From IMG/VR virus record IMGVR_UViG_2541047681_000005: 12,615 nt of DNA; one strand, written 5' to 3'. Positions 1,837 through 9,886 of this stretch are shown piece by piece. The position numbers and the translations under genes were made by a program. The first letter of the stretch is position 1. Each line of letters begins with the position of its first letter. The notes under the pieces were generated by a model, which saw only the letters and a list, made by a program, of their open reading frames with translations, ran no database searches and was not told where the DNA came from. This stretch comes from a virus (lineage: Duplodnaviria > Heunggongvirae > Uroviricota > Caudoviricetes).

Positions 1837-2196
1837 ATGAATACTGGATATTCTCCCGAACAAGGGCGGGGCTTCGTTCGTCCTGAAAAACAGAATCTGC
1901 AAAATTTTGCCGAAATTATTCCGGTTATTTCCGGCCTTACTGGCGGGAGTGAAACCAATATTGTTAACGCCAGAGCGTTGCAGATGTTTGATGATAAAAA
2001 GGGAGTAAATTTAACTTACACCCCTGACGGCAATCAGAATATGAGCATTATCTCTGAGTCAGGTTTCTACAAACTAATAAAAACAAAAAGCGCCCCGTTG
2101 CCGGAGCGCCTTTGTGAACAATTAACCTACTGCGCAAAAAATGAATCTGAGCAGTGGGATTATATCAACCATGTGGAGAAGCGCCACAATTGCCGA
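1837..2196 (+). pseudogene. Possible decayed Bro-N/antirepressor-like remnant (N-terminal part of a 428-aa composite ORF)
   Basis: The first ~115 aa (DGNQNMSIISESGFYKLIKTKSAPLPERL) weakly resemble the Bro-N/KilA-N motif (ESGLYSLI...). The remainder of ORF 1837..3123 is Cys/Arg/Ser-rich and low in complexity, crosses a divergent promoter region and overlaps a better-supported minus-strand gene, so the long ORF is not one real protein. Confidence 0.25.
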
Positions 2197-2543
2197 ATAA
2201 CGGGCAAAACAAAGGCCACCCGCTACGGTGGCCCCTCGACACAAGCTACACGTTATCCCCAACGCATGAGCATTGCCAACAATGCCACATTTGCGGCTGG
2301 TGGGCAATGCAATCAGTCTGGTTCAGTTCGTTGCCATACCTGCAATGAGCGCTTTTCCCTGTACTCTTTAAGGAATTGCTCAAGGGCAAAAGCACATGGC
2401 GCGAATCTTTCTGATTCATGCTCTATCTTTCTGCGCCGTCTTTTCCGTGCCGGTGATAATGTTTTGGTCAATTCTTTATCGGTCATTGTGTTGTCCTGCA
2501 TAGCAATGCGCCGTAGTTACTCACACCACGGCGCTGGTGATGG

Positions 2544-2723
2544 TTACTCCTGCTCTTTGGCCTTGCGGCGCTGGCGGCGTTTGATTTCGCCGCGCATGGC
2601 TGCGTTTATAAACTGTCCCGTGCTTTCGCCTTCTTCTTTCACGTTCTCCATGCCTTCAATAATTTCATGGGCAATACGTGCAGTTACAGATTGTGATTTT
2701 GCATTCTTTGGACCCGTTGCCAT
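2544..2723 (-). CDS. Hypothetical small basic protein (59 aa), divergently transcribed from the left operon
   Basis: Internal ATG at 2721..2723 (complement) preceded by RBS GAGGGG with 6-nt spacing; product MATGPKNAKSQ...EIKRRQRRKAKEQE. Candidate -35/-10 (TTCAAA/TATATT) on the minus strand, overlapped by operator-like repeats. Family not recognised. Confidence 0.45.
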   Translation of the reverse strand: MATGPKNAKSQSVTARIAHEIIEGMENVKEEGESTGQFINAAMRGEIKRRQRRKAKEQE

Positions 2724-2744
2724 GTTTAACCCCTCATGTTTTTG

Positions 2745-2826
2745 GTGTAAGACAATATACACGAAAAAAAAATATTTTGAAGGGTTGACGTGTAAGACAC
2801 CATTGTTTTACATTGTGTCTTACACC
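2745..2826. promoter_or_regulatory. Divergent promoter region with three copies of an 11-bp operator-like motif GTGTAAGACAC
   Basis: Motif at 2745..2755 and 2790..2800 (direct) and 2815..2825 (inverted). Candidate + strand promoter -35 TTGACG (2785..2790) and -10 TTACAT (2808..2813), 17-bp spacer; one operator copy sits in the spacer and the inverted copy at the predicted +1. Candidate minus-strand promoter overlaps the first copy. Confidence 0.55.
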
Positions 2827-2922
2827 TTATTGATGAAAGGCACAGAAACGACGAAACCCCGCACTGTAGGAGCAGTAACGGGGCTTCTAACCACCAACGA
2901 TAGCAACAGTATCGAGGTAGCT

Positions 2923-3123
2923 ATGAGAAATCATACCACACACCCGAAAGGGCGGGACTCGCACAACCTGAATAAATACATCTGGCGTTTTATCGCCCTG
3001 AGCACGGCACAACCGCGCGTGATTACCATTGAGGCCACCAGCGAACAGGAAGCACGCCAGCAATCTCCGGCTGGCTGCGTGATGGTATTTGCTGCCCGTA
3101 TTCGTCAGGGGGTAGGCTTATGA
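2923..3123 (+). CDS. Small protein (66 aa), first gene of the left operon; possibly Icd-like, otherwise hypothetical
   Basis: ATG at 2923 with RBS GAGGT upstream; product MRNHTTHPKGRDSHNLNKYIWRFIALSTAQPRVITIEATSEQEARQQ.... Its stop overlaps the next ATG (ATGA). The Icd-like assignment is a recollection of P4-like prophage annotations and is unverified. Confidence 0.45.
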   Translation: MRNHTTHPKGRDSHNLNKYIWRFIALSTAQPRVITIEATSEQEARQQSPAGCVMVFAARIRQGVGL

Positions 3124-3350
3124 GCCAGGAAATCACACTACAACAGGCAGCAGAACGCGCCCACCAAATCGAAGTTATTTGCGCACTGGCAGAGGATTAC
3201 CCTAGCATGATGACCGACAGCGAATCAGGGGCAATCATCGGCTTACTTAAACGCCTTAGCGGTGAGGTCTGCGTATTCCTGAGCGATGAACAGGAAAGAA
3301 GAACGCTTATTTCTAACGAAAAAAAATGCGGAGGGGTACATGTGCAATAA
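3120..3350 (+). CDS. Hypothetical protein (76 aa)
   Basis: ATG at 3120 overlapping the upstream stop (ATGA), RBS AGGGGG upstream; acidic product. No family recognised. Confidence 0.5.
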   Translation: MSQEITLQQAAERAHQIEVICALAEDYPSMMTDSESGAIIGLLKRLSGEVCVFLSDEQERRTLISNEKKCGGVHVQ

Positions 3351-3570
3351 AACCACACCGGACGCAGCAGAAGAAGCAATGCAAATACTGATACGTGCGC
3401 TCGTTGATGTTACCCACATGGTGGAGATTATGGAGAGAAAATCACAGTCGGAGCACGACAAAAGAAAACTTAAAACAATAAAAATAATTGCCAAAAACTC
3501 GCTGATAAAAGTTACAGACATCCTTAATGAGGACATTAAAAGAATAAGGGAGAAAATTTGTGATGCATAA
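3340..3570 (+). CDS. Hypothetical protein (76 aa)
   Basis: ATG at 3340 preceded by RBS GGAGGGG, overlapping the previous gene by 11 nt. The longer six-frame ORF 3286..3570 probably starts at this internal ATG. No family recognised. Confidence 0.5.
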   Translation: MCNKTTPDAAEEAMQILIRALVDVTHMVEIMERKSQSEHDKRKLKTIKIIAKNSLIKVTDILNEDIKRIREKICDA

Positions 3571-3790
3571 AATCCCTTTTGAAGTATTAATCCACTCTGA
3601 AAACGCATTAATTAAAGCACGCGAAATGAATGCGTTGTTAATTAAATTAATTGAAGTGCCGGAAGGTGGCGAAGATCATTCATCATTAATGTTTGCCGCT
3701 GTTCAGACATTATTGACACCTGTTATTGATGAACTCAATAAGGCTATGGCAATTCACGAGAATAATAAAGCGCCCCACACCGGAGAATAA
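3563..3790 (+). CDS. Hypothetical protein (75 aa)
   Basis: ATG at 3563 (GTG at 3560 also possible) with RBS AAGGGAG upstream; overlaps the previous gene by 8 nt. No family recognised. Confidence 0.5.
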   Translation: MHKIPFEVLIHSENALIKAREMNALLIKLIEVPEGGEDHSSLMFAAVQTLLTPVIDELNKAMAIHENNKAPHTGE

Positions 3791-3795
3791 AAATA

Positions 3796-4095
3796 ATGAA
3801 ACTTAAATATTCTGGCTTAACTGCCAGTGGCAAAACTCGCACTAAATTCATGCGCGGTGATATTTACCGCGACCAGTACGGCGGCACGGTAATGATTAAG
3901 GGCGTGGAGGAACGGCGCGTAACCTACCGTCGTGAAGGCTACGAATATGATTGCGTGATGCCTGTTTATCAGTTCGATCGTGATTTTTCTCTGGTGCAGG
4001 CCGTACCGCGTAACGTGCCCACCAGCAGGGAGAAAGCACGCGCCAATATTCAGGAAATAAAAAAGATGCTTAACGTATTCAGGGGTAAGAAATGA
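3796..4095 (+). CDS. Hypothetical protein (99 aa)
   Basis: ATG at 3796 with RBS GGAGA 9 nt upstream; stop overlaps the primase start (ATGA). No family recognised. Confidence 0.55.
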   Translation: MKLKYSGLTASGKTRTKFMRGDIYRDQYGGTVMIKGVEERRVTYRREGYEYDCVMPVYQFDRDFSLVQAVPRNVPTSREKARANIQEIKKMLNVFRGKK

Positions 4096-5846
4096 AACTG
4101 GCACCGAACGTAAAAAAACAACCACGCGGAATAAAACACAAAGACACAGAGGTAATTATTTTCGCGGGTAGTGATGCGTGGTCACATGCAAAACAGTGGC
4201 AGGAGCAGGACGGCCCCGCATCCGGCGATAATGTGCCGCCTGTGTGGCTTGGGCCAAATCAGCTTGCCGAACTTGATGCGCTGAAAATTGTTCCGGATGG
4301 GAAAAAGCGCGTAAGGCTGTACCAGGCCGGAGAACTGGATTTAGTGGAGACCAAAAAGATTGGTCAGAAGCTGGCGGCGGCAGATATTCAGGACGCAAAT
4401 TTTTACCCTGATGGTATGCACGGTCAGAAGGTGGAGAACTGGCGCGAATATCTGGCCCGTGAGCGCCAGAATCTTTCTGATGGTCTGGTCATTGAGCTTC
4501 CGGTAAAGCAAAAGGCGCAACTTTCGCAGATGGCGGACAGTGAGCGCGCGCAGCTGCTTGCCGATCGCTTTGATGGCGTTTGCGTACATCCTGAAAGTGA
4601 AATCGTTCACGTATGGCGCGGCGGGGTATGGTGTCCGGTCAGCACAATGGAACTTAGCCGCGAAATGGTGGCGATCTATTCAGAGCACAGGGCCACTTTC
4701 AGCAAGCGCGTAATCAATAACGCCGTGGAAGCGTTAAAAGTTATTGCCGAACCAATGGGCGAGCCGTCCGGCGATTTGCTGCCGTTCGCCAATGGTGCGC
4801 TTGACCTGAAAACGGGGGAATTTTCCCCGCACACGCCGGAGAACTGGATCACCACGCACAACGGCATTGAGTACACGCCACCAGCACCAGGGGAGAACAT
4901 CCGCGATAACGCGCCAAACTTTCATAAATGGCTTAAGCACGCAGCCGGAAAAGACCCGCGCAAGATGATGCGTATATGTGCCGCGCTGTACATGATTATG
5001 GCGAACCGGTACGACTGGCAGATGTTTATTGAGGCCACCGGAGACGGCGGGAGCGGTAAAAGTACATTCACGCACATAGCCAGCCTTCTGGCAGGGAAAC
5101 AGAACACGGTAAGCGCTGAAATGACATCGCTTGATGATGCTGGTGGACGTGCGCAGGTTGTCGGGAGTCGTCTTATCGTCCTGGCTGACCAGCCGAAATA
5201 TACAGGCGAAGGAACGGGCATCAAGAAAATCACGGGCGGTGACCCCGTGGAAATTAACCCGAAATACGAAAAGCGTTTCACGGCTGTAATCAGGGCGGTG
5301 GTGCTGGCGACCAACAATAACCCGATGATATTCACCGAACGGGCCGGAGGTGTGGCACGTCGTCGCGTGATTTTCCGTTTCGACAATATCGTCAGTGAGG
5401 CCGAAAAAGACAGGGAGCTACCGGAAAAGATCGCGGCTGAAATCCCTGTCATTATCCGCCGATTGCTGGCGAACTTTACCGACCCTGAGAAGGCACGGGC
5501 TTTACTACTGGAACAGCGTGACGGTGATGAAGCACTGGCAATAAAGCAACAGACGGATCCGGTTATTGAGTTTTGCCAGTTCCTGAATTTTCTGGAGGAA
5601 GCGCGCGGCCTGATGATGGGGGGCGGTGGCGATTCAGTGAAGTACACGACCAGGAACAGCCTTTACCGCGTCTATCTGGCGTTTATGGCATACGCAGGCA
5701 GGAGCAAACCGCTAAACGTAAATGACTTTGGAAAGGCTATGAAGCCTGCCGCAAAAGTTTACGGACATGAATATATTACGCGGAAAGTTAAGGGGGTAAC
5801 GCAGACTAACGCAATAACAACAGACGAGTGCGACGCGTTTTTATAA
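4092..5846 (+). CDS. Replication primase/helicase, P4-alpha / D5-like family with P-loop NTPase domain
   Basis: 584-aa ORF with RBS AGGGG upstream; Walker A motif GDGGSGKST, followed by a hydrophobic strand (LIVLADQP) consistent with Walker B. Position after int-alpA and immediately before an iteron cluster matches satellite pri-rep genes. Confidence 0.9.
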   Translation: MKLAPNVKKQPRGIKHKDTEVIIFAGSDAWSHAKQWQEQDGPASGDNVPPVWLGPNQLAELDALKIVPDGKKRVRLYQAGELDLVETKKIGQKLAAADIQDANFYPDGMHGQKVENWREYLARERQNLSDGLVIELPVKQKAQLSQMADSERAQLLADRFDGVCVHPESEIVHVWRGGVWCPVSTMELSREMVAIYSEHRATFSKRVINNAVEALKVIAEPMGEPSGDLLPFANGALDLKTGEFSPHTPENWITTHNGIEYTPPAPGENIRDNAPNFHKWLKHAAGKDPRKMMRICAALYMIMANRYDWQMFIEATGDGGSGKSTFTHIASLLAGKQNTVSAEMTSLDDAGGRAQVVGSRLIVLADQPKYTGEGTGIKKITGGDPVEINPKYEKRFTAVIRAVVLATNNNPMIFTERAGGVARRRVIFRFDNIVSEAEKDRELPEKIAAEIPVIIRRLLANFTDPEKARALLLEQRDGDEALAIKQQTDPVIEFCQFLNFLEEARGLMMGGGGDSVKYTTRNSLYRVYLAFMAYAGRSKPLNVNDFGKAMKPAAKVYGHEYITRKVKGVTQTNAITTDECDAFL

Positions 5847-5860
5847 TTTTTTGTAATTGC

Positions 5861-6086
5861 TGTCTACCCTGTCTACCTGAGTAAAGAAAAATACATTTAA
5901 TTCAGTGCATTAAGTTAGGTAGACAGCCTTTTTTTACTGTCTACCCACTATCTACCCTCTCTACCTGATTTTACCTGAATCAGACAGGGAGGTAGACACG
6001 GGGTAGATAGTGGATAAAAGCACTCTACCCCGCTGAAAGCCGCGCCATTACTGGCATGAGGGCCACTAAGGTAGATAAGGTAGACA
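5861..6086. repeat. Iteron cluster, putative replication origin
   Basis: About 11 copies of the core TCTACC / GGTAGA in both orientations (TGTCTACC at 5861, 5870, 5938; ATCTACCC 5950; CTCTACC 5959 and 6023; GGTAGACA 5918, 5991, 6079; GGTAGATA 6002, 6070), with an AT-rich stretch at 5880..5915. Directly downstream of the primase stop. Confidence 0.7.
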
Positions 6087-6134
6087 AGGGGAGGCACAAC
6101 TCAAAACTTTTTAAACGAGGGGGTAAAAATAAAT

Positions 6135-9445: not shown

Positions 9446-9886
9446 ATGATTGATAAAGCTTGTTTTGTAAGTCAGCAGGAAATAGCTGAACATTTCAAGG
9501 TTAACAGAACCACTATTCGCGCATGGACCAAACAGGGGATGCCGTATCTTAATGCGGATCGCGGAAAGTCTGGCGGTTATCACATCGGGCATACATTGCT
9601 TTGGTCTTCAGGTAAAAGCCGTCTTGAGGCCATCAGATATCACGTAGAAACCAGTGCGCTGGAAAAAATTATGTTTGCCAGGCTGCTTTCATCTGAGCGT
9701 GACGAGTACTCCAGTGAAGAAACAGAACATCGATTTGATGAAGGTTTGCAGATTTACGGCTATTCACCGGAAGATGTGAGCAAGGCACGAAATAAAATGG
9801 CTGGCTTTCTGGCTGGGTGGCGTCATGCCGTAAGCGTTCGCCGTGCCAGCATGGAACAATCAGTCGTTACAGAACAGCAAAGTTAA
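9446..9886 (+). CDS. Small terminase-like protein, lambda Nu1-type DNA-binding N-terminus with divergent C-terminus (TerS/Rpp-like)
   Basis: 146-aa ORF about 90 bp downstream of cosN, as Nu1 is in lambda. N-terminus QQEIAEHFKVNRTTIRAWTKQGMPYL aligns with Nu1 KKQLADIFGASIRTIQNWQEQGMPVL (winged HTH). Shorter than Nu1 (181 aa) and the C-terminal region does not resemble Nu1's. Confidence 0.7.
   Translation: MIDKACFVSQQEIAEHFKVNRTTIRAWTKQGMPYLNADRGKSGGYHIGHTLLWSSGKSRLEAIRYHVETSALEKIMFARLLSSERDEYSSEETEHRFDEGLQIYGYSPEDVSKARNKMAGFLAGWRHAVSVRRASMEQSVVTEQQS

Follow-up and report, generated by a model that had tools for sequence, protein, structure and literature searches.

IMG/VR record IMGVR_UViG_2541047681_000005 (Caudoviricetes) is a stretch of 12,615 nucleotides, referred to here as the window. 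Between positions 2923 and 4095 it carries five small open reading frames (ORFs) of 66-99 aa directly upstream of a primase gene, pri. The prototype Gram-negative phage-inducible chromosomal island (PICI) is EcCICFT073, and the island that carries the five ORFs is a mosaic variant of it, located at the same roxA|phoQ site and not of the P4 type. Judged by their substitution patterns, all five ORFs are genuine protein-coding genes under purifying selection. Comparison between loci separates exchangeable cassettes from an invariant core, which consists of an Icd-like gene, a hairpin gene of the ORF4 type, RgdR and Pri. In the window, ORF1 is the Icd-like gene and ORF5 is RgdR. The operon and its surroundings consist of the following features:

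2544-2723, minus strand: YlcI/YnfO-family gene, 59 aa from ATG 2723 (GTG 2762 in the mechanical ORF list); matches NF041551 at 8.8e-18
2745-2825: control region, three copies of GTGTAAGACA bracketing two divergent sigma70-like promoters
2923-3123, plus strand: ORF1, 66 aa
3120-3350, plus strand: ORF2, 76 aa
3340-3570, plus strand: ORF3, 76 aa
3563-3790, plus strand: ORF4, 75 aa (76 aa from GTG 3560)
3796-4095, plus strand: ORF5, 99 aa
4092-5846, plus strand: primase gene pri-rep, 584 aa, last gene of the operon
5854-6091, both orientations: putative origin, at least 12 iterons GGTAGACA/TGTCTACC immediately 3' of pri
1-1230, left end of the window: int, 409 aa, a tyrosine recombinase by annotation of the orthologous islands

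The five ORFs and pri lie on the same strand, in an order that recurs in related loci. In the original prediction all adjacent genes overlapped by 1-11 nt. This holds for ORF1/2 (-4 nt, ATGA), ORF2/3 (-11 nt), ORF3/4 (-8 nt) and ORF5/pri (-4 nt, ATGA), whereas ORF4 and ORF5 are separated by a gap of 5 nt (+5). A credible ribosome-binding site had been claimed for each gene, and this is borne out: duplexes with the anti-Shine-Dalgarno sequence have energies of -6.6 to -10.7 kcal/mol at the five starts and at pri. The value for ORF1 is -7.2 kcal/mol. At 2833 and 3286, two other starts in frame, the values are +0.9 and -2.2 kcal/mol, so that these have no Shine-Dalgarno (SD) sequence; the longest mechanically called version of ORF3 begins at 3286. 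The SD sequences lie within the upstream genes. The last codons of ORF4, for example, encode T-G-E and hold the SD of RgdR (GGAG). The tightly coupled operon ending in a primase is therefore present as described, and its overlaps and very short spacers are conserved over 87 loci. These comprise 80 IMG/VR loci with an RgdR homologue together with annotated E. coli loci, mapped by tblastn. In P1 (c4-icd-ant) and in P4, translation of an Icd-type leader gene is needed for downstream expression; because of this precedent, the overlaps are read here as probable functional coupling. A 428-aa ORF in the mechanical list (1837-3123) was rejected as an artefact, an open frame running through a pseudogene remnant and the promoter region. 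The remnant (window 1837-2500, plus strand) has a BRO-N domain and is annotated as a pseudogene in orthologous islands; it holds the ORF1 frame open far upstream. PGAP at times annotates a 135-aa 'Icd-like' protein which crosses the promoter and the leader.

The control region contains GTGTAAGACA at 2745-2754 and 2790-2799, and inverted at 2816-2825. The rightward promoter (plus strand) is made up of TTGACG at 2785 and TACATT at 2814; the leftward promoter (minus strand) spans 2781-2754. The first copy lies in the leftward -10/start region, the second abuts the rightward -35, and the inverted copy is found just past the rightward -10. Other islands have a different 9-mer of the form TG-N5-CA at the corresponding places: by the ylcI-proximal TATAC, by the TTGAC -35, and after the -10. 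This operator 9-mer is repeated two to three times per region and co-varies with the YlcI/YnfO allele; there are at least 11 types (loci L007-L086). YlcI/YnfO is small and basic, and its gene is divergent from the operon; 59-aa orthologues are annotated by PGAP in CFT073. Its variable residues fall in an N-terminal KSQxxxxRxPH segment, a pattern which resembles the DNA-reading strand of a ribbon-helix-helix protein. Sequence and profile searches of YlcI against the PDB gave no meaningful match. Because the operator core co-varies with its allele, YlcI/YnfO is likely to repress both the ORF1-pri operon and its own gene in an allele-specific manner. The YlcI/operator pairs look like an immunity-type repressor system of Gram-negative PICIs. 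There is no Rfam match to a C4/CI-type immunity RNA at E<=1 anywhere in the window.

The island had originally been likened to P4-type satellites, and this has to be abandoned in favour of the EcCICFT073 family of PICIs. In a megablast search of 5,426 complete E. coli genomes, the closest islands sit at roxA|phoQ and cover 92-95% of the window at about 96% identity. One of these matching islands is that of strain CFT073, EcCICFT073 itself; the annotation pattern of the roxA|phoQ islands and the CFT073 gene order agree with the window. Since these islands match, EcCICFT073 included, and since origin iterons lie 3' of pri, the element is a PICI and not a P4-type satellite. An origin 3' of the replication gene is a stated hallmark of PICIs (PMC6092414), and the window thus has its own replicon, with pri-rep followed directly by the iterons. 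The gene order is int, an AlpA-family gene, the divergent YlcI/YnfO gene, ORF1-5, the P4-family primase (D5_N/DUF5906), SSB, a lambda E-like major capsid gene and a head-decoration gene. The island extends over about 11 kb, up to phoQ at the right end of the window. This lies within the size expected for PICIs (about 10-15 kb), as does the position of int at the left end with the AlpA-family regulator (PF05930, 3e-18) beside it. The attachment site between roxA/ycfD and phoQ is that of the prototype, to which the similarity is high. No lysis or tail genes are present in the window's ORF list or in the orthologue annotation, only the lambda E-like capsid and head-decoration genes, as is typical of PICIs. 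Sequence related to window positions 2400-4400 is present in 1,787 of the 5,426 genomes.

The biology of the prototype is known in part. Its helpers are lambda and phi80, for which induction, packaging and high-frequency transfer have been demonstrated (PMC6092414). Induction requires the activator AlpA, and the existence of a repressor was left open (PMC6092414). In PICIs the helper induces the island via AlpA, rather than the island derepressing the helper (PMC6092414). Redirection of packaging involves a complex of Rpp with phage TerS (PMC6739421); an rpp gene was not located in the window.

The window shares with EcCICFT073 the attachment site, gene order, operon and junction geometry. Identities are 97% for ORF1, 98.7% for ORF2, 86% for ORF5 (against C1493) and about 95% for Pri. 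Three differences set the two islands apart. The window lacks the fourth CFT073 gene and so has five small genes where CFT073 has six. Its ORF3 and ORF4, deeply divergent and AT-rich alleles, share no more than 40% and 39% identity with their counterparts. The window also has another YlcI allele and another operator, TGTAAGACA as opposed to TGGGCCACA in CFT073. In strain HM670 the third and fourth small genes of CFT073 are fused into one 144-aa ORF (L003 3840-4274 versus L004 4270-4705), and such fused forms are common among the IMG/VR loci.

Conservation across related islands had been named beforehand as a test of the five ORFs, with lack of purifying selection as an outcome that would count against them. 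Ratios of nonsynonymous to synonymous substitution rates (dN/dS) were calculated pairwise by NG86:

ORF1: 0.17
ORF2: 0.31 (few substitutions)
ORF3: 0.35-0.37 against homologues of 76-78% identity; 0.55-1.40 in shifted frames
ORF4: 0.20 (mean dS 0.59)
ORF5: 0.26
Pri: 0.14

Since all five ORFs lie at about 0.17-0.37, they passed this test; none of the ORF families has internal stops. The close ORF3 set alone gives dN/dS of 0.68 and is uninformative.

Gene content varies within a constant layout. The YlcI/YnfO gene on the opposite strand is followed by one or two Icd-like genes (short or long), zero to four further small genes, an ORF4-family gene, RgdR and a replication protein. There are 30 architectures among the related loci. 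Measured from the last Icd-like gene to RgdR, the spacing falls into discrete steps of about 240, 470, 700 and 910 nt and longer, matching a content of one to five small genes or more. Minimal islands exist which have only Icd-like, ORF4, RgdR and Pri; the window has the combination of ORF2, ORF3 and ORF4 allele 'a'. Each junction type belongs to the downstream cassette. ORF2-type genes always start at -4 and ORF3-type genes always at -11, while -8 is the near-universal start of ORF4a, of the fourth CFT073 gene and of the long form of the Icd-like gene. The last residues of the upstream protein are therefore dictated by the next cassette; Icd-like tails end in VGL, SHHA or ETYA according to the gene downstream. 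The right-hand end is the most regular, with +5 between ORF4 and RgdR in 79 of 80 loci and -4 (ATGA) between RgdR and Pri in 86 of 87.

The statement that none of the five belongs to a recognised family, apart from a tentative Icd-like ORF1, needs to be amended at both ends of the array. ORF1 is firmly Icd-like: it matches NF033153 over residues 19-62 at 1.4e-19 (69.9 bits against a cut-off of 25). It also matches phrog_6196 (6e-45). The protein has an isoelectric point (pI) of 10.8. Drawing on what is understood of the Icd family, its product would be expected to block host cell division or to be toxic. The leader upstream of ORF1 contains a stable hairpin at 2853-2887 (the fold of 2820-2940 has -27.4 kcal/mol, z = -2.8 against shuffles); it has no downstream U-run and no Rfam match.

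ORF5 is the second member with a family. It matches DUF4222 (PF13973) at 5e-24, with 84 bits against a gathering threshold of 27, and belongs to the RgdR family named by Flockhart et al. in 2012 (PMC3378721). The protein is basic (pI 10.05) and has the RGD motif at residues 20-22 (...KFMRGDIYRD...). Two members, ECs1581 from O-island 51 and C1493, activate the LEE1 promoter of the enterocyte effacement locus (LEE) and type III secretion in enterohaemorrhagic E. coli (EHEC); both repress motility and increase Congo-red binding (PMC3378721). ECs1581 binds DNA without apparent specificity, and residue 20 affects activity, with a reported switch of type III secretion activation (PMC3378721). ORF5 resembles ECs1581 (O-island 51/CP-933C of E. 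coli O157:H7) in its 99-aa length, DUF4222 domain, RGD at 20-22, basic character and position directly upstream of the island replication gene. It differs in being another allele, closest to the C1493-like group; the effects on LEE, motility and Congo-red binding are known from orthologues only, and the host of the window may lack LEE altogether. Core residues 20-68 are nearly invariant in 30 alleles. By region, dN/dS is 0.74 in the N-terminus (relaxed), 0.17 in the core and 0.18 in the C-terminal helix. RGD position 20 is naturally polymorphic across islands (R, C, N or H), and the N-terminus and the C-terminal helix each come in two or three mosaic alleles. ORF5 has one weak match among 50,697 phage records, in a record of 8.6 kb, and neither ORF1 nor ORF5 has a meaningful match among PDB sequences. 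A scan of genome contigs with ORF5 alone found two loci, a single-protein mode which reaches close relatives only. We infer that the native role of ORF5 would be tied to the replication gene that RgdR always overlaps.

ORF4 is acidic (pI 5.4). Its AlphaFold2 model is an antiparallel helical hairpin with helices at 6-31 and 39-68 and a mean predicted local distance difference test (pLDDT) score of 83.6. Foldseek searches of this model against the PDB and BFVD returned generic hairpins only, none at E<=1e-3. Conservation is heptad-like. The helices have dN/dS of 0.09 and 0.14, and the loop with the start of helix 2 has 0.52; positive selection in the variable loop was considered and rejected, as this value is relaxed and not above 1. 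A profile search among 1.84e9 representatives found only 15 clusters at 50% identity; the six whose records were consulted belong, where a name is given, to E. coli or Yersinia enterocolitica. An ORF4-family gene is found directly upstream of RgdR in nearly all loci examined. Islands which seem to have none carry a third, divergent allele of the family. Because ORF4 accompanies RgdR in nearly every locus, it is probably a partner or modulator of RgdR. ORF1 and ORF4 match only vB_KppS-Ant among the phage records. This 16.5-kb 'Escherichia phage' (LR881103.1, L089) has an ORF4-like gene directly upstream of its primase and no RgdR; it also contains an integrase and an Icd-like gene, along with genes for terminase, capsid, portal and connector. 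Its overall appearance is that of a capsid-forming PICI and not of a phage.

ORF2 and ORF3 are the optional members. ORF2 is acidic (pI 4.8), matches phrog_1478 (3e-28), and is absent from many islands. It has relatives of 38-41% identity over 58 aa in Salmonella phage Fels-1 (STM0898.6n) and in seven Klebsiella phage records. In Fels-1 the homologue is one of a series of small, overlapping ORFs that fill the interval from the repressor gene to xis/int; two of the seven Klebsiella records have it beside an annotated recombination exonuclease. ORF3 matches phrog_5146 (4.5e-8) and has no match among the phage records. It is only 40% identical to its CFT073 counterpart, yet the N-terminal MCNKTTPDAA is common to both. 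The window differs from temperate phages, in which ORF1, ORF3, ORF4 and ORF5 have essentially no counterparts, satellite-like entries aside. The ORF3-ORF4 stretch (window 3300-3800) has 34-37% GC compared with 50-55% in the flanks, and may have come from elsewhere or be silenced by H-NS. ORF2, ORF3 and ORF4 have no Pfam, NCBIfam or PADLOC family and match only PHROGs of no assigned function; in a search of 5.8 billion proteins, those relatives that bear a name are Escherichia and Shigella 'hypothetical proteins'. Nothing on them was found in the literature on Icd-like proteins, YlcI/YnfO and PICI inducers. The idea that the three are paralogues of one another was rejected (hhalign probabilities below 1%). 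Because ORF2 homologues sit among the small early genes of lambdoid phages, ORF2 and ORF3 are likened to such genes; by this analogy these exchangeable cassettes of about 75 aa most likely encode small protein-binding accessory factors aimed at host or helper proteins.

Pri has D5_N, DUF5906 and Pox_D5 domains and matches phrog_864 (8e-174); its TIGR01613 score of 108.9 bits is just above the cut-off of 108.7. RgdR precedes varied replication proteins, including P4-type primase alleles, a RepA-family helicase and DUF927. The N-terminal 125-130 aa or so of Pri (window 4092-4480; phrog_2850) are 40-77% identical among otherwise different replication proteins, RepA-family helicases included. The iteron array at 5854-6091 is likely to be the replication origin.

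The reading we prefer, with a probability of roughly 0.6, is that ORF1-5 make up the half nearest the promoter in the replication ('early') operon of a PICI of the EcCICFT073 type, under repressor control and translationally chained. Transcription would start from the sigma70-type promoter at 2785-2814, bracketed by three allele-specific operators, and would be held off by the divergently encoded YlcI/YnfO protein. Derepression would occur on helper induction, which is AlpA-dependent in EcCICFT073, or on entry into a repressor-free cell. One mRNA would then be translated as a chain from ORF1 through ORF2, ORF3, ORF4 and ORF5 to pri, with the origin iterons beyond. Each downstream protein, and lastly the primase, would depend on translation of the preceding gene. 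In this way the operon would deliver an Icd-like host-directed protein, the optional cassettes, the ORF4/RgdR pair and the initiator.

Several points weigh against this scheme. The repressor role of YlcI/YnfO is drawn solely from covariation, and functional coupling is read from the geometry of the junctions. ORF2-4 gave no informative sequence or fold match in PHROG, Pfam, NCBIfam, PADLOC or Foldseek searches. The single-sequence AlphaFold2 model of ORF5 is poor (pLDDT 46.7) and of no use for fold comparison.

ORF4 and RgdR might instead be replication-control factors for the initiator, analogues of P4 Cnr, in which case the host effects of RgdR would be side effects. This is a possible but clearly less probable explanation. 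It fits the invariance of the ORF4-RgdR-Pri core, in which the RgdR/Pri overlap is kept whatever the type of initiator. Because a recombination breakpoint lies inside the initiator gene, after about 125 aa, ORF4, RgdR and the Pri N-terminus move as one block. The ORF4-like gene immediately before the primase in vB_KppS-Ant, the DNA binding of RgdR (PMC3378721) and the strong constraint on the ORF4 helices (dN/dS 0.09-0.14) are in line with it too. However, homology to Cnr (DUF5375) is lacking, the probabilities in hhalign being below 1%. The near-invariant RgdR core is found with very different initiators, which speaks against specific contact with the initiator outside the shared N-terminus, and RgdR expressed alone has strong host phenotypes.

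It is rather doubtful that the operon is an abortive-infection or superinfection-exclusion device, in which a toxic Icd-like effector would be freed when a phage protein disturbs repression, with the small ORFs as co-factors. Such a device is favoured by a programmed-cell-death module in strain ECOR61 (Silas et al., bioRxiv 10.1101/2023.04.06.535777), where small ORFs that overlap work jointly with an Icd-like protein and a primase. In this prophage, six linked genes (Icd-like, two overlapping small ORFs and primase among them) cause growth arrest when phage orf24 is expressed, and removal of the Icd-like gene abolishes the arrest (bioRxiv 10.1101/2023.04.06.535777). A P4 satellite prophage in ECOR15 is triggered by Abc1; suppressor insertions fell in the int, AlpA, Icd-like, hypothetical and primase genes (bioRxiv 10.1101/2023.04.06.535777). 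EcCICFT073 also blocks lambda through genes other than capsid and decoration. However, the Icd-like protein of ECOR61 is extended by a long stretch at its N-terminus, and the small ORFs there lie upstream, so that gene order and Icd-like architecture are unlike those of the window; it should be noted that the modules were compared by description. PADLOC defence models have no family for ORF1-5 at E<=0.1, and the published redirection of packaging by EcCICFT073 involves Rpp binding to phage TerS (PMC6739421) and not this operon.

A more elaborate idea is about as doubtful: the segment would be a plug-and-play array whose optional cassettes (ORF2, ORF3 and their alleles) are strain-specific small inhibitors of helper-phage or host-defence proteins. 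Because each cassette brings its own coupling junction, cassettes could be swapped without breaking translation of the primase. ORF4/RgdR would here be a nucleoid-directed switch, for example an H-NS antagonist checked by ORF4. The published phenotypes of RgdR (raised LEE expression and Congo-red binding, reduced motility) are similar to those of H-NS loss. If this were true, the switch would make the AT-rich island accessible to expression, with LEE opened incidentally.

The original prediction had compared ORF1-5 with the left operon of P4, whose small genes serve helper derepression (epsilon-like) and interference with the host. It had also put the five forward as candidates for helper manipulation or anti-phage action, which they may yet be. 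This analogy survives at both ends and fails in the middle. The first left-operon ORF of P4 has the same Icd-like domain (7.8e-21) beside a Phage_ASH domain, and in P4 as in the window the Icd-like first ORF is followed by coupled small genes, with a P4-family primase last. The immI operon of P1 (c4-icd-ant) likewise has an Icd-like first gene and then tightly coupled small genes. The middle genes are unrelated in both comparisons, and P4 epsilon, orf151 and cnr have no detectable relatives among ORF2-5. For P4 epsilon (Derepression, PF25738) there is no Pfam match in ORF1-5 at E<=0.1, and blastp and phmmer were not significant; for cnr (DUF5375) there is no Pfam match in ORF1-5, and hhalign was not significant. 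ORF2 or ORF4 as P4 Cnr and RgdR as P4 orf151 were tried and rejected (not significant, best probability 5%). Both P1 and P4 also differ in control, which in the window is apparently by a protein-operator system; no antisense or processed immunity RNA (C4/CI) is found there. No sid, delta or psu is annotated in the orthologous islands, which instead have genes for capsid and decoration, and as a PICI the element is of a type induced by its published helpers, lambda and phi80. A helper-derepressing operon of the P4 type is thus largely refuted and highly improbable. That ORF2-4 are a nonfunctional spacer or leader, kept open by chance or for ribosome traffic to pri, is more improbable still: no function is known for their families, many islands do without ORF2 and ORF3, and the close ORF3 set gives an uninformative dN/dS of 0.68, but purifying selection acts in the annotated frame and not in shifted frames, alleles of 40% identity retain length and motifs, every start has an SD, and ORF4 has a confident hairpin model with heptad-like conservation.

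With the replication-operon reading preferred, the element and two of its five genes (Icd-like and RgdR) are of kinds already known, and no new kind of system is present. PICIs are widespread in E. coli, and of the genes between regulator and primase only RgdR has known effects, on virulence and motility in EHEC. The operon bears on three matters: the silencing of Gram-negative PICIs, the launch of their replication, and the reason for the control of type III secretion by an island gene. The parts worth experiment are the logic of the cassettes and the candidate PICI repressor.

Outside the operon, an ORF in the right arm (9446-9886, plus strand, 146 aa) has a weak N-terminal PADLOC match to mad1 (6.5e-5, residues 8-33).

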